A stretch of DNA of 64,000 nt from Moorena sp. SIOASIH (lineage in GTDB: Bacteria; Cyanobacteriota; Cyanobacteriia; Cyanobacteriales; Coleofasciculaceae). The position numbers and the translations under genes were made by a program. Of the stretch, positions 2,723-63,852 are shown one piece after another (position 1 is the stretch's first letter; each line of letters starts with the position of its first letter). The notes under the pieces were generated by a model. That model saw only the letters and a program-made list of their open reading frames with translations. It made no database searches and was not told the DNA's origin. The DNA is taken from positions 741,053-805,052 of the forward strand of contig NZ_JAAHIH010000001.1 of the NCBI RefSeq assembly GCF_010671925.1, in the 5' to 3' direction.

Positions 2723-3444
2723 CAAAACTCGCGGAATTCCCCACCGTCTTTCACGGTGTTGAAGTTACCGTAAGGAGAGGGTCGCCTTTATGGTTAGGAG
2801 GCTTGGCTGAAAAGGGTTAAAACTTTTTGATTAAGGCTCCACTCTCTATCGGTTTCGTCTCTTGGATGGATAGCGAGACCATGGAGGCGCGCTTTCCGTT
2901 TGAAGAATTAAATTACGGGGTCGCGCCTCAACTTATGACGATTCGTGCTAAAATAGTATTGGTCGATGACCCGCCTGACTGACTAAAAGGCTACCTTAAA
3001 GGTGTAAAAGTACTAGCAGAGTTCAGGGAAGAGACTTGCCCCAGCTGGTCAGCTATCGCTGTAATTCCAAGGTAAGTCTGTCGTAAAGTTATACGTCGAT
3101 AGAAGGCGGATGTCTGCCTGTGGACGCTGAGTAAGACCAATTCCAGCAGGGGGGCTTTCCAATGGCCGGGTTCCCCGGCCATTGGAAAGCTCATCTGGTT
3201 GAGGCGTCGGCGGACGCGCGCGGGAAGCCCAAAAGACGAATAAGACCGTCCCTGAATTGACCTGAGAGTCGGAAGCCCCAACCTCGGCAAAGCAGGTTGG
3301 GGTACTTCACATTCAATAATCCGTCGCTGTAGCGATCGCTCTGAGCAATTGTTTGTTCCAAAATTCCCCTTTTTCAAAACAGGGGAATTTTGCGCGTTTC
3401 TTAATAATGGAATGATTTGAATAGTTTTGTGGAACGCAATTTTT

Positions 3445-3762
3445 GAATTAAGAATTAAGAATTAAGAATTAAGAATTAAGAATTAAGAATTAAGAATTAA
3501 GAATTAAGAATTAAGAATTAAGAATTAAGAATTAAGAATTAAGAATTAAGAATTAAGAATTAAGAATTAAGAATTAAGAATTAAGAATTAAGAATTAAGA
3601 ATTAAGAATTAAGAATTAAGAATTAAGAATTAAGAATTAAGAATTAAGAATTAAGAATTAAGAATTAAGAATTAAGAATTATGCATTCTGTATTCTGTAT
3701 TCTGCATTCTACATTCTGCATTCTACATTCTGCATTCTTAATTCTAAATTCTACATTCTGAC
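3445..3762. repeat. Long (GAATTAA)n heptamer array of about 34 units, followed by (CATTCTG/CATTCTA)n, ending at the GGCCAAAAGGCCACGCTACGCGAAC core (3781-3805).
   Basis: Read directly from the sequence. Confidence 0.95.
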
Positions 3763-3794: not shown

Positions 3795-5129
3795 CTACGC
3801 GAACAACATGTGAAGGTGTTCTAAAAAATACTGACGATATAAATTACAACAGAGTGTGACTTGATTTCTGTGAACACTCACCAAACCCATACTCTGTAAC
3901 TTATAGATACTGATTGGATCTAATTCAACTCCCCTATCTGCTGTAACCACGTGTTTAAGAGTAGTAGCTAAATCAGGATTTTCCCTGAGTACACTTAAGT
4001 GTTGCCGCAAATAGTCACTATAAATTCCCGTAGCAGTAGCTGCTTCAGCCAGTAATTGTTCTAGGCTAATATTCTGATAAGCCAAGTGATAGAGAGCAAG
4101 CTGGACTAATCCCGGATGTCCCCCCACCATATCCATCAGTTTCTCAGCAGCTTCACTATTTGACCAATGTAATCTATAAAGCTGCGCTAACTGCTGGATT
4201 TGCTGTTTGTTAAACTCGGGTAACTTAATCGGTAATCCCACATTAAACGGAGATTGGGAAGTTTCCAGAGCAACATAAATTTCTGTCGAGTAAACCACAA
4301 CAACCCGCAGCTTTCGCCACACCGGTAGTTGTTTAGATTCCTCATGCCAAGAGCGCAATAAGGGTAAAAAATCTTTAGCAGTTTGGGTATGCTCAAACAG
4401 GTGATGAACTTCATCCATTGCCAAAACTAGGGGATGGTCTATTTTTTCTAGGATATGTTCTTGTAAGTAACTCATACAGCTGACCTTACTGCCTAGGTCT
4501 TTATCCCAATAGTCATCCAGTTGGTGGGGAAGCTGGAGTTGGTAACTGACGTTAACACATAACCAGCGCAATAGCCGGTCTAAATTGCTTAAAATGGCGG
4601 TTTCGGCTTGGTCAAAATTGAGGTATACTCTGCGATATTGTTTTTCTCTTGCCTGGTCTAATATTCGCAGCAGCAAAGAGGTTTTTCCTGTCTCTTTTGG
4701 TCCTGTAATCCGGAGCAAACTCCCAGGTTGCTGGATGGCTTGATAGCAAAGCTCTTCAATAGGAGGACGCTTTATATAAAGCTGAGATGGTAGGGGAAGT
4801 GCTCCACTGGGAAATTCAGCAATTTGACGTAGGCATTGACGGCGGTAATATTGCTCAATTATCTCTTGATAGTAGGGAGTAATCGGGGTTGTCTCCAGAG
4901 TGTTCCGGAAGTTGGTCTTGGTGATCGCTTTGCCAAAAATGTCTCCCAGTAATCGCCACAACTTATAGGCAGTCTTTCTGAGGTATTCAGGGCCATAGTG
5001 TGCTTCGATCGCCATATCGCTATAGGTTTTTCCTTCCCAGGCTTGGTGCAGTATCCATTCCTGAAGTGGAGTCAACTTGATTTTCTCAACACTTTTGAGG
5101 ATGTCAAGTACCTGATCAATAGTCATCAC
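3795..5129 (-). CDS. AAA-like-domain ATPase with an N-terminal HTH-like region. Walker A is GPKETGKTSLL.
   Basis: P-loop motif present. Overall layout resembles the cyanobacterial 'AAA-like domain' family (recalled as PF14516). The C-terminal KLQSMGLVSV...LYRQYF motif is shared with the ORF at 44210. Confidence 0.6.
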   Translation of the reverse strand: MMTIDQVLDILKSVEKIKLTPLQEWILHQAWEGKTYSDMAIEAHYGPEYLRKTAYKLWRLLGDIFGKAITKTNFRNTLETTPITPYYQEIIEQYYRRQCLRQIAEFPSGALPLPSQLYIKRPPIEELCYQAIQQPGSLLRITGPKETGKTSLLLRILDQAREKQYRRVYLNFDQAETAILSNLDRLLRWLCVNVSYQLQLPHQLDDYWDKDLGSKVSCMSYLQEHILEKIDHPLVLAMDEVHHLFEHTQTAKDFLPLLRSWHEESKQLPVWRKLRVVVVYSTEIYVALETSQSPFNVGLPIKLPEFNKQQIQQLAQLYRLHWSNSEAAEKLMDMVGGHPGLVQLALYHLAYQNISLEQLLAEAATATGIYSDYLRQHLSVLRENPDLATTLKHVVTADRGVELDPISIYKLQSMGLVSVHRNQVTLCCNLYRQYFLEHLHMLFA

Positions 5130-9535: not shown

Positions 9536-9660
9536 ATATGCGCTACCTCAAGCGCGTCGTTCGCACAGCGTGGCCATTCGCGTAGCGTGGCCAAAGGCCA
9601 AGGCCAAAGCCTGTGCCACGCACGCTACTTGAGTTGCTATCAGCACCTCAGCAGTCAGCT
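9536..9660. repeat. Copy of the dispersed GTTCGCGTAGCGTGGCCAAAGGCC-core composite repeat.
   Basis: The sequence gcgtggccattcgcgtagcgtggccaaaggccaaggccaaagcc is followed by ctatcagc/cagtcagc units. Confidence 0.8.
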
Positions 9661-36120: not shown

Positions 36121-37389
36121 ATGAGTTTAACAATGAACTACACTTACCGTATTTATCCTTCGGCTGCTCAACAAGAATTAATGTTGAGATGGTTAGAAAC
36201 TTGTAGACGACTGTATAACCGTTGCCTACGAGACTTAAAAGACTGGATCAATAGCAGAAAGTGTCAAGTAGATCGTTGCTCCATTGACCGGGAATATATC
36301 ATGTCTGCTGATATTCCTTTCCCGGGTTACATGGAACAGAAGAGACAGTTAACCCAATGGAAGAAAACCGACCCTCAACTCAAGGCTGTACATTCTCAGG
36401 TGACACAAGATGTGGTTAAGAGATTGCATAACTCTTGGGAAGCATTTAAACAGAGAGGGCATGGTTTCCCAAGGTTTAAAAAGTACGGTCGTTATCAATC
36501 CTTTTTGTTTCCTCAGTTTCAGAAGTCACCCTTTGTCGGCAATCAAATTAAACTCCCGATGATTGGGTGGGTCAAGATTAACTTACATCGATATATCCCG
36601 ACGGGCTTCAGGGTTAAAGGGGTCAGAGTGGTTTCAAGATGTCGAGGGACAAAATGGTTTGTTGTTATTACTATCCAAGCCGATGTATCTGTTCCTGATA
36701 CTCCGTCCTACGGTAGAGCTATTGGGGTGGATGTTGGGTTAAATGACTTTTTGGCAACATCAGATGGCTTGAGAATTCCTAGATCCAAGTTTTTTGTAGA
36801 CTTACAAAGCGAGCTTAAATTGCTGCAACGTAGAGCATCCAGAAAACAGAAAGGGTCTAAAAATTGGGAGAAAGCACAAATTAAAGTTTCACGATTACAC
36901 CACAAAATTGACAACACTCGCTCCGATTGGCAATTCAAAGTCGCTCATGCTCTTTGTGATCAAGCCGACTCTATTTTTGTAGAAGATATTGATTACCGAG
37001 TCATGGCAAAAGGGTTTCTTGGGAAGCATTCCCTAGATGCAAGTTTTGGTCAATTCAGAGAGTTATTGAAATGGGTCTGTTGGAAAAGAGGGAAATTTTT
37101 GGCCACAGTAGACCATCGGGGAACCTCTAAACAATGTCCTAAATGTGGGGCCGAGTGGGATAACAACCTGTCAATCCGTTGGCATACTTGCACAGAATGT
37201 GGATATTCCAATAACCGAGATGTTGCTAGCGCAGAAGTGATTCGTAATCGTGGAATTGAAAAGTACCCAAGGACAATTGGGGAAAGGAAACCGCCTGCTA
37301 TTGGCGTACTGTCGGGGATTTTCAATCTAGATAAGTGCTACGCAGGAATTCCCAATTGTGAGATTGGGAAGCCCGCGCTGTACTCGTAG
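36121..37389 (+). CDS. tnpB: TnpB (OrfB_IS605) RNA-guided endonuclease-family protein with an intact RuvC triad and Zn ribbon.
   Basis: Candidate RuvC triad residues sit in GVDVGL (Asp), FVEDIDY (Glu) and NRDVASAEVIRNRG (Asp). Zn ribbon is CPKCG...CTECG. The N-terminus YTYRIYPSAAQ is TnpB-typical. Confidence 0.85.
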   Translation: MSLTMNYTYRIYPSAAQQELMLRWLETCRRLYNRCLRDLKDWINSRKCQVDRCSIDREYIMSADIPFPGYMEQKRQLTQWKKTDPQLKAVHSQVTQDVVKRLHNSWEAFKQRGHGFPRFKKYGRYQSFLFPQFQKSPFVGNQIKLPMIGWVKINLHRYIPTGFRVKGVRVVSRCRGTKWFVVITIQADVSVPDTPSYGRAIGVDVGLNDFLATSDGLRIPRSKFFVDLQSELKLLQRRASRKQKGSKNWEKAQIKVSRLHHKIDNTRSDWQFKVAHALCDQADSIFVEDIDYRVMAKGFLGKHSLDASFGQFRELLKWVCWKRGKFLATVDHRGTSKQCPKCGAEWDNNLSIRWHTCTECGYSNNRDVASAEVIRNRGIEKYPRTIGERKPPAIGVLSGIFNLDKCYAGIPNCEIGKPALYS

Positions 37390-43087: not shown

Positions 43088-43733
43088 CAGGCATCAATTC
43101 CTAAATTGAGTCATTGCGATATAATATACTGTTCATATTACCAGTTTGGTTAACGGTGCTATTAGACCCAGATTTGGCATGACTGCAAGTCAGAGGCTGT
43201 CTCACGTAAGAAACAAAGGTTTCGTCTCCGGGATGAAGCGGCATAGCAGTTTTAACCCCAGTCAAGTATAATAGATATAGGTTGAAATTGGCCAAGGCAC
43301 TCTTAGCTCCGGAGAAAACGGCTAGGCCAGTAGGTTAGTATCGGCGAGTGATACGTAAATCGGAGCAATGTTGAAGAATCAAGAATCAAGAATCAAGAAT
43401 TCAGAAATACCAATTCTAAATTCTAAATTCTCAATTCTTAATTCTCAATGGGGTCGTCCGGGAATTGACTCGGTTGTAGAAGCTACGGGTTTCCGTAGAG
43501 TAAGCAGACCTAGAGGTTCAGCCCTTAACCCTTAGGCTCAATTAATTGGGAGTCTAAGGGCGTTAGTTAGCTAGGGCTACTGAAAACCAACGCGCCTGTT
43601 GCCTGGGCGAAAGCCCCCGTGCTATGCCTGGCGGCAGGCTACGCCAACAGCCCGGGGTAAGCTTACTGCTCATCTTTGCTATGATGTATTAATTCAACTT
43701 AGTCTCAATAGATTGAATACCATAGCATAGATT

Positions 43734-50568: not shown

Positions 50569-51166
50569 TATTTCTCTTGCCTATATGGAGTATTGCTTGT
50601 TATTGCAGTAACAACTGATCAAAGTATCCAGACTGAGTGTTTGCGTTCCCGTAGCGGCTCTGAAAGAGCATCGCGTTTGCTTTCTATCGCGTAGCGTGAC
50701 CTTTTGGGCAAAGCCCGACGCTGCGCGAACGGTCAATCCCACAGCTGCTCCGTTGAAGTATCCGATTCAGCAACTATAGCGCTAATTAAAGATTAAGCGG
50801 CTCATAACTATAGCGCTAGTTTATATAACTTCAGTCCAATTAATTCACTATCGAAAATTTCAACAATTTTGGAGATGATAGGATGCTCCTGATCAGCCGC
50901 TTTGGATCAGCATTCCCTGTAGCCCTGGTTAATCTGAATTAACAAAACTTTACATCAATGGCTACCACCTATAGGTGTATAATAACTAAAATTATTCTTT
51001 CGACAAGGAATAATAGTCTCAAGCCATTATCAATCAAACTGATTAGCTGTTACTAGGTTAATCAAAACTAGGTTAATTAATACTAGGTTAATCCATGGCA
51101 AGAAATTGATTAACCTTAAGTGCCTAAGTAAAATCACCCGACCCAGGAGCAGGAGAAACCATTGCC

Positions 51167-61172: not shown

Positions 61173-61556
61173 TTAGTTAGTTCCGGTTTTCAAGGGTTCG
61201 TAAAAGCGGCAAGAATCACAGGGTCCGTCTGGATTGACTGCACAACGAATCAATTCAGAGTGAGCATTGAAATAACAGCTGGCATCCCCAATCACCCAAC
61301 GCCCCTGGAGCAGGCTTTTTTCACTAGGGTGTCCAAAAGACTGCACATACAGAGCAATTTTATGCAAACGATAGCGCCCTGACTTAAGACAGTAGCGGTG
61401 GCGGCGCTCTAAAACTGTGTAGGTTTTACCTTTAAAGTCGAGATAGTTACCGGGTTGAGGTATCCAATCCAGTTGAACATTGCCAATGGTCTGACGTGGG
61501 TGGGTCAAAATTAACTCTGTCGGTAGAGAATCAGGCTCCATAGTGCTTATTGTCAT
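61173..61556 (-). CDS. Hypothetical Cys-containing protein, 127 aa.
   Basis: ORF convergent with fmt. A CDSC motif lies near the C-terminus. Confidence 0.4.
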   Translation of the reverse strand: MTISTMEPDSLPTELILTHPRQTIGNVQLDWIPQPGNYLDFKGKTYTVLERRHRYCLKSGRYRLHKIALYVQSFGHPSEKSLLQGRWVIGDASCYFNAHSELIRCAVNPDGPCDSCRFYEPLKTGTN

Positions 61557-61559
61557 TCA

Positions 61560-63290
61560 CGCTACAGTTGAATGGTATCGCAGGCTGTGGGCTGACTATC
61601 TAGCCCAACAGAATTCTACATAGAATTGTCCGGTTAAGTACAACATACTGCCGCTCTTCTTGAAGACTGGATTGATCAACGAAGTGATTAACCGGAGTTG
61701 ATATTACCCATAGTGACTACTCCCACATCAAATCAAAGATTATGATGTGGGCTTCTCAGATTTACAAATGAGACTTGCTGCTCGACGGCATCTTGTGCCA
61801 ATTTACCACAGCCATTGAGCGGCAGTCCAACCGCCAATAATCCACGATTTAAAATGTTGATGCCACTGTTCCAGTCCCTGTCAATTTTGACCTTACAACT
61901 GGAACAGTGATGAACGCGATTACTTAAACTTTTTTCAACTAATGAGCCACAATTAGAACACTCAATACTTGTTCCCCGTGGATTAACTTCCTGGACTAAC
62001 AAACCGCGTCTTACCGCTACTGCTTGTAATATCTCCAGGAATGCGCCCCAGGCTGCATCATGTATTGATTTAGCTAGTTTAGTTCTTGCGAGTCCTTTGA
62101 TATTTAAATTTTCGTGAGCATAATGGTCGTATTTACTGCATAACCAATGAGCAACTTGATAATGAAATTCTTTTCGGCAACGGGTTAAATGAAGATGCAA
62201 TAAAGCCACTTTCTTTTTGGCTTTTTCCCAGTTTTTAGACCCCTTGACACGGCGCGACATTACTTGTTGAGCTAAAGCCAATTTGTTTTGAGCCTTACGA
62301 TAAAACTGAGGAATAGGGATAGCTTCACCGTCTGAGGTGGTTAAAAATTTTTCTAAGCCAACGTCGATACCGACAGCAGATCTAACCGAATCCACAGGTA
62401 ACAGCTCAGGTACGGTATCATCTTTCATGGAAATGCAACAATACCAACCATTAGCCTTTTTGACGACAGTACACTGTTTAAGAGTAAATCCATCTGGTAT
62501 TGGTCTATGCATGACCACAGGTATTTGACCAATGCGACTGAGCAATAGAAAGCCATCTTTTAGATGCGCCCCCGCACGCGGGCTGTTCACACGTGGAAAC
62601 ACGAATGACCTTAATTGACCTTGTTTCTTGAAGCGAGGTCTTCCCCCGCGTAACCCATGCTTCACCGGCTTCCGCCATCTATCCCATGCTTTGTTGAGCC
62701 GTTGTAGGTTAACCTGCTGAGTTTCTGCGTAGATTTGTTTGTAATCAGGGAATAGCCGTTTAGTTTCCTTGAGAGCTGCCTGTTGGGTGTAATAGTTGAC
62801 CGCTTCTGGAATAACACCTATCGGCTCACTAATCAAGCTACATCTATCAATCGGTGAGCGAGTCCGATGGAGCCAATCAAGTCGTTGCCCTAGAGCATAG
62901 TTCCAGTGACGACGCAACAATTCGAGCCACCTTTCCATGATGGCTATCTGTTCGGGACTTGGTTTGATTCTGTAGCAGTACGTTAATATCACTATGCTAT
63001 TGTACCACTTACGTTCGCACCTCAAGCAGCGTCGGCTCTGCCGAAAGCGTGGCCGTAGGCCAATCGCGCAGGGTGACCTGCATATCAATCTTCTGTTTAG
63101 AACTTCCAGACGCTGTCGGGCAATTCCCCGGAGACGAAACCTTAGACAGGCTCGCCTTTATAAGCGACAGTCTGTGAGTCATAAGTTTAAGTTATATGAA
63201 ATAAGGCGAGCCTGTCTTACGGTAACTTCGTTCCCCGTTAAATGGGAGATTATAACGGGAGACCCCTTGCCCGTTTAGTTGGGTAATTAT
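61560..63290 (-). mobile_element. Second IS200/IS605-family TnpB-only element. The left end carries a subterminal hairpin at ~63142-63220. Boundaries are approximate.
   Basis: TnpB ORF plus a 15-bp inverted repeat AGACAGGCTCGCCTT/AAGGCGAGCCTGTCT upstream of the ORF. Confidence 0.5.
61733..62992 (-). CDS. tnpB: TnpB (OrfB_IS605)-family protein with an intact RuvC triad. The likely GTG start gives M/V-ILTYCYRIKPSPEQ; the ORF-track start at 63088 is probably an extension.
   Basis: Candidate RuvC triad residues sit in AVGIDVGL (Asp), AHENLNIKG (Glu) and DRDWNSGINILNRG (Asp). Zn ribbon is CSNCG...CSSCK. Confidence 0.8.
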   Translation of the reverse strand: MILTYCYRIKPSPEQIAIMERWLELLRRHWNYALGQRLDWLHRTRSPIDRCSLISEPIGVIPEAVNYYTQQAALKETKRLFPDYKQIYAETQQVNLQRLNKAWDRWRKPVKHGLRGGRPRFKKQGQLRSFVFPRVNSPRAGAHLKDGFLLLSRIGQIPVVMHRPIPDGFTLKQCTVVKKANGWYCCISMKDDTVPELLPVDSVRSAVGIDVGLEKFLTTSDGEAIPIPQFYRKAQNKLALAQQVMSRRVKGSKNWEKAKKKVALLHLHLTRCRKEFHYQVAHWLCSKYDHYAHENLNIKGLARTKLAKSIHDAAWGAFLEILQAVAVRRGLLVQEVNPRGTSIECSNCGSLVEKSLSNRVHHCSSCKVKIDRDWNSGINILNRGLLAVGLPLNGCGKLAQDAVEQQVSFVNLRSPHHNL

Positions 63291-63852
63291 TGGTCATTGA
63301 GCAAAAAATGTCTTAAATTCGTGATTGGGGTGCATAAAGTTGGGAATTTAGCAAGTTAATTCTGTAGTCAGCTTAAAAGACTGTCAGATTAAAAGACTAT
63401 CGTTTCTGTTCTCTTCGTTTCATTAGCAGTTTCTACTTGTTTGCCCAAAACCCCATGACAGCAGTTAGTCCTGTGGTGTGAAATTCATCCAATGTTGAAC
63501 CAAAAGCCCAGGCTACCAACGTTGTAACATCCTTGAGTTGCAATGTCGGTGGCTTGGGTGTAGAACTGGTGGAGCTGTTCATGAACCATTATCAATTCAC
63601 CAACTGGCATTGTCTGTCAAGGGCTTGAAAAATTTTCCAGCTATACCCCCATCAACAATGCATTTACAACAAAGTATGAACATCTCTGGTATTTCACTTA
63701 GGACGCTTCGCACTTGCTTGGCCTCAGGGCTATTTTCAAGTCAGAAACCCATGGGCGTTTCGCCGACACCAAAGGAATGAAAATCTCTGTTCTCTATTCC
63801 CTATTCCCTATATTCAGATTAGCTTAATGCACTATATTCGTGTTTTAGACAT

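Follow-up and report, generated by a model that had tools for sequence, protein, structure and literature searches.

A tnpA-deleted IS605-type insertion sequence in Moorena, with a conspicuous hairpin that probably belongs to a nested palindromic repeat

Is the most conspicuous hairpin upstream of a tnpB gene also the structure by which the transposon is recognised? This question is raised by a locus in the window, that is, the whole 64-kb stretch of Moorena sp. SIOASIH DNA that was analysed. A first-pass annotation had described there a TnpB element spanning 61560-63290, and had taken a 15-bp perfect inverted repeat upstream of the gene for the left end presented to TnpA in trans. The evidence on the boundaries of the element comes from about 24 insertions in Moorena genomes and one orthologous site that is free of the insertion sequence (IS). 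In our judgement it is highly probable that the locus is an IS605-family IS, which has lost tnpA and keeps an intact tnpB, and that the 15-bp hairpin is the core of a separate palindromic repeat, termed H here, which lies outside the recognition machinery.

The complete IS occupies 61713..63277 on the minus strand (1565 bp), and is a tnpA-deleted derivative of an IS605-type element within the IS200/IS605 family. In BLAST comparisons with 23 Moorena copies, similarity breaks off near 63282 and near 61712, and multiple alignments of the Moorena copies show a sharp drop of similarity at both element ends. At the IS-free orthologous site of Moorena sp. SIO3H5 (L030), the sequence from 63278 upward is joined directly to that from 61712 downward. 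This site was reached by homology search from the neighbouring proteins fmt and DUF6464, for which an exact-sequence look-up returned no record. The boundaries are accurate to about ±2 nt, since AC is the final dinucleotide of the 5' flank (..CAAC) as well as of the right end (..TCAC). The span first proposed contains the whole element, overshooting it on the right, where 61560-61712 is host DNA, and slightly on the left, where the element ends at 63277. As in IS605/IS608-type elements, insertion is strand-specific and 3' of a short conserved motif, with neither terminal inverted repeats (subterminal hairpins of like structure are found at both ends instead) nor a target duplication, as judged against the empty site, which differs by a few bases at the junction.

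The host flank CCAAC (63278..63282, minus strand) adjoins the left end on its 5' side, and is the predicted left cleavage and target site of TnpA as well as the predicted TAM of TnpB. The motif C(C/T/G)AA(C/T) was found 0-1 nt from the conserved left-end start TAAAC in 24/24 insertions, and the sequence beyond it differs. The right flanks differ in every insertion, and therefore the element has been inserted many times. That CCAAC would act as a TAM is suggested by the known workings of the family. This predicted TAM is C-rich, whereas those of IS605/IS608-type elements are T-rich. When a plasmid collection was searched, only a distant Nostoc TnpB was matched.

The tnpB coding sequence (61733..62992, minus strand) extends from a GTG start to the TGA stop at 61735-61733 and encodes 419 aa. 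Its product matches the Pfam families OrfB_IS605 (PF01385, E = 4.6e-21), Cas12f1-like_TNB (PF07282, E = 3.9e-17) and HTH_OrfB_IS605 (PF12323, E = 1.9e-08), and the ISDra2 TnpB structures (8exa, 8bf8, 8h1j) match it across the same range (E = 7e-31). The motifs AVGIDVGL, AHENLNIKG, DRDWNS and CSNC...CSSC are all found, and fall at the corresponding RuvC and zinc-ribbon positions when aligned with a TnpB-like chain of solved structure. The proposal of a TnpB with RuvC and zinc-ribbon motifs is borne out by these domains and alignments, and the RuvC D-E-D and the zinc ribbon, which the protein shares with ISDra2 TnpB, are intact. A nuclease-dead TnpB derivative was also considered and was rejected, since the D-E-D motifs are intact. 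The maximal ORF around tnpB extends over 61733..63088 (minus strand). The choice of the GTG at 62992 as the true start, made from the sequence alone, agrees with the comparison: HTH_OrfB_IS605 begins there, an ATG is aligned with it in at least 11 paralogues, and no conservation of a coding kind extends upstream of it. The accompanying remark that the annotated start lies too far upstream does not apply to the NCBI protein at the locus (P0121, Moorena sp. SIOASIH), which already has 419 aa, with 100% identity and coverage. The TnpB is 38% identical to the first TnpB of the window (36121..37389), from which it had been separated, correctly, as a different and distantly related lineage.

Between the left end and tnpB, a Y1_Tnp gene (PF01797, 3.4e-41) is present in the relatives L008, L010, L002, L012, L021 and L037-39. 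In the full-length relatives this tnpA encodes 155-162 aa on the strand opposite to tnpB, with HIH as the HUH motif and the Tyr in YFVASCGG. The combination of a Y1 HUH tnpA with tnpB is like that of IS608 (Helicobacter pylori) and ISDra2 (Deinococcus), and the family is assigned to the IS605 type because some relatives carry the divergent Y1 tnpA. Unlike in IS605/IS608-type elements, however, tnpA and tnpB of the relatives are divergent, and the C-terminus of TnpA is encoded across the left-end hairpin. The window copy has no tnpA of its own, of which only the last codons are left, and none was found within the 64-kb window. The interval that holds the Y1 transposase gene in full-length relatives is represented by a spacer (62993..63116, minus strand). 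It contains small GC-rich dispersed repeats (GGCCACGCTT..., GCCGACGCTG...GCGAACG) together with the last 30 nt or so of tnpA and the conserved intergenic stretch that separates tnpA from tnpB. About 400 bp of tnpA are gone and the copy is non-autonomous. The earlier designation as IS1341-like fits the gene content, with tnpB as the sole gene between IS200/IS605-type ends and TnpA needed in trans. It does not fit the ancestry: the family is of the IS605 type, and the window copy, in which the remnant of tnpA and the intergenic region are still present, arose recently within a two-gene family by internal deletion and does not represent a separate tnpB-only lineage. The intergenic stretch also contains TACAAT, 6 nt upstream of GTG 62992, which may be a promoter element; a promoter and terminator scan of the locus gave nothing above background, and the consensus scan did not call it.

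Which structures, then, mark the ends of the element? The true left-end structure is a long hairpin of about 70 nt, consisting of an outer stem, an internal loop and an inner hairpin with a bulged T. The outer stem is formed by the 5' arm CGGGCAA (63267..63273, minus strand) and the 3' arm TTGCCCG (63117..63123, minus strand), as indicated by covariation and folds. It is 100% paired in 18 copies, with GC/AU/CG at one position and CG/UA/UG at another. The subterminal left-end hairpin (IPL; 63232..63261, minus strand) is composed of CTCCCGTTA, the bulged T, AATC, a loop, (G)ATT and TAACGGG(AG), with its foot 16 nt from the left boundary. It is kept in all copies, with compensatory changes from AATC/GATT to ACCC/GGGT, and the left end of L011, which lacks H, folds as predicted. 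Over the left end, 95.7% of the cells are paired, and 18 double-change cells were counted vs 5.5 in shuffles, none of 500 shuffles reaching 18; slid pairings, used as controls, are only 38-50% paired.

The subterminal right-end hairpin (IPR; 61722..61751, minus strand) is composed of CCCACATCA, a bulged T, AATC, TTT, GATT and TGATGTGGG. The distance between its foot and the right boundary is 9 nt, the tnpB stop codon is in its loop, and it is invariant except for a compensatory change from C-G to U-A in 5 copies. The two hairpins are alike, each having a 9-bp stem, the bulged T and the AATC/GATT top, and in L008 the loop of the left-end hairpin is identical to that of the right-end one. In IS608, the hairpins lie 19 nt (left) and 10 nt (right) from the cleavage points and contain an extrahelical T (PMC3201880). 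The window hairpins, with their unpaired T at 16 and 9 nt, are comparable. A pairing between guide and cleavage sequences in the manner of IS608 is not claimed here: TCAC/GAAG at the right end parallels TCAA/GAAT of IS608, but the corresponding left-end pairing (CAAC with GGGT or GGGG) is unconvincing. The left end departs from the IS605/IS608 type in that a longer structure, with an extra 7-bp outer stem, surrounds the hairpin; the window copy departs further, having no tnpA and a foreign palindromic insert in its left end. In its left-end hairpin, the upper stem is altered from G to C at 63244 and the insert has cost the hairpin its two basal pairs, and therefore the window copy may no longer be mobilisable.

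The first-pass annotation had suggested that an omega-RNA be sought in 61560-61800. It cannot lie in 61560-61712, because that stretch is host DNA common to the IS-free orthologue. The candidate omega-RNA scaffold is located at about 61713..61876 on the minus strand, where it covers the last part of tnpB and reaches as far as the right boundary. Third-codon-position conservation is 0.89-0.95 in this region vs 0.62-0.80 elsewhere in tnpB, and such conservation of the 3' end at the nucleotide level is expected for an omega-RNA, as in IS605/IS608-type elements. The consensus fold of the candidate, derived from close paralogues only, has five pairs with compensatory changes. No omega-RNA family was matched by Rfam over the whole window at gathering thresholds, and at permissive E-values over 61500-63400 the sole hit was a plant-miRNA-like one in the long hairpin, attributable to chance (E = 0.048). 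The host DNA 3' of the right end (61693..61712, minus strand; TATGGGTAATATCAACTCCG) is the putative guide, whose sequence differs in every insertion and is present in L030. By analogy with the known workings of the family, it would be transcribed as the guide of the omega-RNA.

The window element and its TnpB are members of the known IS605-type kind, and a corresponding mechanism can be proposed. TnpA from an autonomous copy elsewhere in the genome would act in trans on the window element, excise the top strand as a circle and reinsert it 3' of CCAAC. TnpB, loaded with an omega-RNA made of at least the last 165 nt of the element plus about 16-20 nt of flank, would cut the emptied site of CCAAC and flank, and recombination would then restore the element. 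For users of the window TnpB, the predictions are CCAAC as the TAM, 61713 as the right end, and the scaffold interval given above.

What, then, is the 15-bp repeat? The repeat is exact as first described, with AGACAGGCTCGCCTT at 63144-63158 and its complement at 63203-63217, 100% complementary over 15 nt with 44 nt between the arms, and it lies 152-225 nt upstream of GTG 62992. Only 0.05 occurrences would be expected in shuffles, even when two mismatches are allowed, and among perfect inverted repeats of 15 bp or more whose arms are no further than 120 nt apart, the 64-kb window contains just one besides it. The region also folds far better than shuffles (z = -4.9 to -5.6). The left boundary is at 63277 and not inside 63000-63140, where it would have left the hairpin outside the element, and therefore the hairpin is inside the IS. 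It is part, however, of the nested palindromic element H (63130..63233, minus strand; 104 nt), which interrupts the internal loop of the left-end structure on the 3' strand, and H, the left-end hairpin and the outer stem form a three-way junction in the predicted fold.

H is an optional and dispersed small palindromic repeat family. It is present in 6 and missing from 18 of the 24 distinct insertions. For example, it is absent from the sister copies L001 (the closest relative, 96% identical), L005 and L008, and from all copies with tnpA, where its site is TnpA coding sequence. Copies of the H family were found at four unrelated loci (L023:114-216, window 2758-2862, L031:4807(-) and L037:4670(-)), and H thus occurs in five independent contexts in the roughly 380 kb examined. 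The termini are conserved between copies (GAAGTTACCGTAAG ... GGTTTCGTCTCC), and the inner arms vary yet stay complementary. The flanks of H at different loci have only G-runs in common. Between ISs whose tnpB genes share 77-79% identity, the H copies share 96-97%. When H is excised in silico, the empty sequence is not exactly restored, being one A short, and the left-end junctions exist in two variants, GGGTTAGAAG and GGGGAACGAAG. Consequently, either a single insertion of H followed by exchange of left ends between IS copies, or repeated site-specific insertion, may account for its distribution. Exact and gapped patterns of the H repeat found no match in metagenome and viral-contig collections.

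Could H nevertheless serve the IS? One alternative is that the IS has recruited it as a functional RNA or DNA structure, for example as a leader that governs tnpB expression, as a block to read-through transcription coming from the flank, or as a modulator of the access of TnpA to the left end. It lies on the strand of tnpB, in the interval from the left end to the start of the gene, its co-varying arms indicate that the hairpin is maintained, and the outer stem of the left end is not disrupted by it. However, most IS copies are without H, the complementarity of its arms is also kept in copies far from any IS, and H contains no terminator-like T run. We therefore regard co-option as unlikely.

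Alternatively, H might be an ancestral part of the left end that has repeatedly been deleted, with no insertion involved. The H-bearing left ends all share the odd junction that is one A short, which fits a single origin, and presence and absence among sister copies could be explained by loss as well. The copies with tnpA, on the other hand, presumably represent the ancestral architecture, and the site of H is occupied there by uninterrupted coding sequence for the TnpA C-terminus, whose reading frame an H of about 103-104 nt would break. The family members at four unrelated loci, and a similarity of H between ISs far greater than that of their tnpB genes, also argue against this reading, which is quite unlikely in our view.

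The original proposal, that the 15-bp hairpin is the subterminal imperfect palindrome of the left end bound by TnpA in trans, can be judged in the same way. In its favour, the hairpin falls within the element at a distance of 60-130 nt from the left boundary, its strand is the right one and its fold is very stable. But it belongs to a segment that 18 of the 24 insertions do without, every TnpA-encoding copy among them. Nor does it have a right-end counterpart: the single hairpin at that end is the one with the bulged T, and its match on the left is 63261-63232, a form that both ends conserve down to the unpaired T and the top. A perfect 15-bp stem with a 44-nt loop is, moreover, unlike the imperfect palindromes of the IS608 type (PMC3201880), and the repeat also occurs at loci without an IS. 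The proposal is thus very improbable, and a conspicuous perfect hairpin near a TnpB gene need not be the recognition structure of the transposon. It was the comparison of copies that moved the boundaries and gave the true left and right hairpins, the target motif and the likely guide region. As for an IS607-type element mobilised by a serine recombinase, which TnpB proteins alone do not separate from IS200/IS605 and which the missing transposase gene of the window copy would permit, it is barely conceivable and was rejected, since the full-length paralogues encode Y1_Tnp (PF01797) and no serine recombinase, and the subterminal hairpins, the missing terminal inverted repeats and the conserved 5' target motif also speak against it.

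As a separate palindromic repeat, H can be likened, by their general description, to MITEs, REP doublets or REPINs and the small repeats of filamentous cyanobacteria. Like these, H is about 100 nt long and forms a single long hairpin. The conserved and imperfectly inverted termini, the co-varying arms, the intergenic dispersal and the polymorphism between related loci are as described for MITEs and REPINs, and the nesting inside other mobile elements is as described for the cyanobacterial repeats. In contrast to MITEs and REPINs as so described, no target-site duplication can be defined for H, its arms are not REP-like palindromes, and it is known from the five contexts listed above.

H may be mobile. 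In L002, L006 and L012, a different palindrome, of 45 nt, occupies the position of H and is cleanly inserted in frame. It is conceivable, though we give it a small chance, that H and this unrelated palindrome are small hairpin elements which insert into hairpins of single-stranded DNA, IS605 left ends among them, preferably at the foot or in the internal loop, through a new structure-dependent mobilisation mechanism. If so, such elements would parasitise the transposon's own recognition structure, possibly crippling or tuning its mobilisation, and the conserved termini and strictly co-varying arms of H would be marks of that mechanism. For cyanobacterial genome dynamics, it is of modest interest that one internal-loop site of the left end has received two palindromic mini-elements unrelated to each other, and that the H family changes its arm sequence while keeping complementarity; both observations are anecdotal at the present scale of about 380 kb. 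Elsewhere in the window, the stretch 43190-43232 shares the right end of H and is at least a partial match to it.

The minus-strand interval 61733-63088 is occupied by a single long ORF in an ORF scan of the window, in which all three TnpB Pfam domains (OrfB_IS605, Cas12f1-like_TNB and HTH_OrfB_IS605) are found. The product matches the solved ISDra2 TnpB structures (E=7e-31), and in the alignment to the best-matching chain, GIDVGL, AHENLN, DRDWNS and the CxxC...CxxC ribbon coincide with its RuvC and zinc-ribbon positions. The identification as TnpB in the first-pass annotation is therefore borne out, as is its distant relationship to the first TnpB of the window (36121-37389), with 38% identity. 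The start that it proposed, GTG 62992, also stands, because the same alignment column is ATG in many paralogues, the paralogue indels upstream are of non-coding type, with lengths that are not multiples of three, and the Pfam N-terminal HTH model begins there. However, the claim that the annotated start is too far upstream fails, since the public annotation uses this GTG already: in a protein search, the NCBI protein of Moorena sp. SIOASIH (P0121, 419 aa) showed 100% identity to the product from GTG 62992 with 100% coverage.

The boundaries were determined with 23 close copies from Moorena genomes, obtained by a genome-collection scan (individual loci are denoted by L numbers). Based on BLAST of the locus against all copies, similarity ends at ~63282 on the left and ~61712 on the right. 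In the alignment, the right boundary is abrupt after ...GATGTGGGAGTAGTCAC at 61713, just 20 nt past the stop codon, and the right flanks are different in each insertion; the left end of all copies starts with TAAACGGGCAAGGGGTCTCCC, with a CCAAC-like motif 5' of the start and unrelated DNA further out. In Moorena sp. SIO3H5, the orthologous intergenic region between permease and DUF6464 lacks the element; its alignment with the window runs as far as 63278 and resumes at 61712. Consequently, the element spans 63277..61713 (1565 bp), with an ambiguity of ±2 nt because the flank (..CAAC) and the right end (..TCAC) both end in AC, and also because a few junction bases are different in the SIO3H5 orthologue. 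The left boundary thus lies outside 63000-63140, and the 15-bp hairpin noted previously is inside the IS. Likewise, 61560-61712 is host DNA and cannot hold an omega-RNA scaffold.

In the copies whose left region is long (L008, L010, L002, L012, L021 and L037-39), the opposite strand between the left end and tnpB codes for a protein of 155-170 aa, which carries the HUH motif and the catalytic tyrosine and matches Pfam Y1_Tnp (3.4e-41). Therefore, the family is IS605-type, and the window copy arose from it by internal deletion, with ~30 nt from the 3' end of tnpA and the sequence between tnpA and tnpB retained; its plus-strand ORF 62994-63278 finishes in ...IITGDPLPV, as TnpA does. The tnpA gene is frameshifted in L004 and L006 and truncated in L015 and L017, and none was found elsewhere in the 64-kb window. 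Membership of IS607 is ruled out by the Y1_Tnp TnpA of the relatives. The TnpA reading frame crosses the whole left-end hairpin in this family, and the base that completes its stop (plus-strand TAG, 63276-63278) is the final one of the CCAAC target in the flank, so that the same DNA encodes the transposase C-terminus and the recognition structure. We also observed one insertion of this IS family, L032:9366-11938 (same site in L033 and L034), by which a T2SSE/PilT-like ATPase gene is broken into two pieces, of 314 and 249 aa.

Comparison of the copies shows a long hairpin at the left end, with an outer stem, a G-rich internal loop and an inner hairpin. The 7-bp outer stem (minus strand, CGGGCAA 63273-63267 / TTGCCCG 63123-63117) is 100% paired, with GC, AU and CG all seen at one position, and the inner hairpin (minus strand, 63261-63232) consists of CTCCCGTTA, a bulged T, AATC, the loop, GATT and TAACGGGAG. 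After variable inserts were taken out, 95.7% of the cells are paired (38-50% with the partners slid), and four pairs have two-sided changes, amounting to 18 such cells versus 5.5 in shuffles, a count reached by 0/500 shuffles. The insert-free copy L011 folds exactly into this structure. The right-end hairpin (minus strand, 61751-61722) has the same design (CCCACATCA, bulged T, AATC, TTT, GATT, TGATGTGGG), holds the tnpB stop codon within its loop, and shows a compensatory C-G to U-A change in five copies. The distance from hairpin foot to cleavage point is 16 nt on the left and 9 nt on the right, against 19 and 10 nt in IS608, whose hairpins also contain an extrahelical T (PMC3201880). Hence the textbook end arrangement is that of the bulged-T hairpins, not the 15-bp repeat. 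In the window copy, position 63244 of the left-end hairpin is changed from G to C, and an insert has removed two of the basal pairs; consequently, this copy may be impaired.

No Rfam match for an omega-RNA was obtained. The last 164 nt of the element have a consensus structure with five pairs showing two-sided changes, in a loop of which the 24-nt insertion of some copies sits, and third-codon-position conservation, 0.62-0.80 over most of tnpB, reaches 0.89 and 0.95 in its two final windows of 90 nt. Both features fit a predicted omega-RNA scaffold overlapping the tnpB 3' end and ending at 61713, for which the guide would be 61712-61693. By analogy with IS608, ISDra2 and the Geobacillus elements (see PMC3201880 and PMC8612924), TnpA in trans would excise the element and reinsert it as single-stranded DNA 3' of CCAAC, and TnpB with the omega-RNA would cut the emptied site, favouring retention of the element. 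A TnpB element of this sort is not unusual for a TnpB-rich cyanobacterium; the nested palindromic repeats are the sole mildly novel aspect.

The perfect 15-bp inverted repeat (arms 63144-63158 / 63203-63217, 44 nt apart) is real, being far beyond chance with a fold z of about -5. In the first-pass annotation the TnpB was thus correctly recognised, while the hairpin was misassigned as a left-end hairpin for TnpA: it is the core of a 104-nt palindromic segment, H (63233-63130), by which the internal loop of the left end is broken on its 3' strand. H is present in 6/24 distinct insertions (the window, L003, L007 with its orthologues L035/L036, L009, L020 and L022) and missing from 18/24, including L001, whose protein is 96% identical to that of the window copy, and all tnpA+ copies, where the H site is unbroken TnpA coding sequence. 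The predicted fold with H is a three-way junction with the outer left-end stem still closed.

The similarity of H does not follow that of the IS: the identities of H versus tnpB are 96% versus 79% (window-L003), 97% versus 77% (L009-L022) and 86.5% versus 92% (window-L022). Judged from these comparisons, H has its own history, separate from the IS. With H taken out, the site has one A fewer than an empty site, and two junction variants occur; therefore, a single H insertion followed by left-end exchange between IS copies and repeated site-specific insertion of H are equally possible. In L007, H has ACAGTTGAGCC as its left inner arm, near-complementary to its own right arm; L035/L036, the same insertion in other strains, have the mismatched ACAGGCTCGCC there, a difference suggestive of compensatory change in place or of conversion between arms.

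Unrelated loci also carry members of the H family: L023:114-216 (within another repeat), window 2758-2862 (plus strand, intergenic, just 3' of ORF 2312-2722), L031:4807(-) and L037:4670(-). All share the termini GAAGTTACCGTAAG ... GGTTTCGTCTC(C/T), and the inner arms vary yet stay complementary (ACAGGCTCGCC/GGCGAGCCTGT, AATAGGGTCGCC/GGCGACCCTATT, AAGAGTGGAGCC/GGCTCCACTCTT). In the 2758-2862 copy the left inner arm resembles the L031 subtype and the right inner arm the L037 subtype, so that they are only ~11/15 complementary. The L037 copy (4532-4670, minus strand) reaches ~150 nt owing to an additional palindrome, GGTGCG ACCCGTGGCGAATTTAATTCGCCGACGG AAAG CGCACC, nested within the loop. At window 43190-43232 (plus strand), ...GGCTGTCTCACGTAAGAAACAAAGGTTTCGTCTCC followed by GGG is an exact match to the H right end over 17 nt, but upstream of it no left arm can be recognised; this may be a solo H arm or a degraded one.

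A different 45-nt palindrome (ACGGGGCGTATAAAGTGCGGACGCAGGTTCCGCACACAGCCCCTT) is located at the H position in L002 (972-1016), L006 (2477-2521) and L012 (2506-2550). Its removal restores the empty sequence exactly, as for a clean insertion, and it keeps the tnpA reading frame, so that the TnpA tail is longer by 15 residues and the ORF stays unbroken in L002 and L012. The sequence GGGAGACCCCTTGCCC of L001 looks like a remnant of it. In addition, very small GC-rich repeats (core GCCGACGCT[G/A]CGCGAACG, also GGCCACGCTT...) are dispersed in both orientations, at 63005-63064, 444-470, 9558-9599 and 50714-50731 in the window, near 4114-4163 in L003/L005/L011/L016/L017, and near the tnpB 3' end in L002/L006/L008/L009/L010/L015/L017. 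Those inside tnpB are 24-nt in-frame insertions, one of which splits the RuvC-III motif between KID and RDWN; others are in tnpA (L010), the left-end spacer and elsewhere in the window. Finally, a long heptanucleotide tandem array (AGAATTA)n faces an inverted imperfect array at window 3605-3759, and long arrays of (GGGAGTA)n, (GGGGAGAT)n and (CCCGATT)n adjoin the truncated IS copies of L015/L017 at ~2470-2650.
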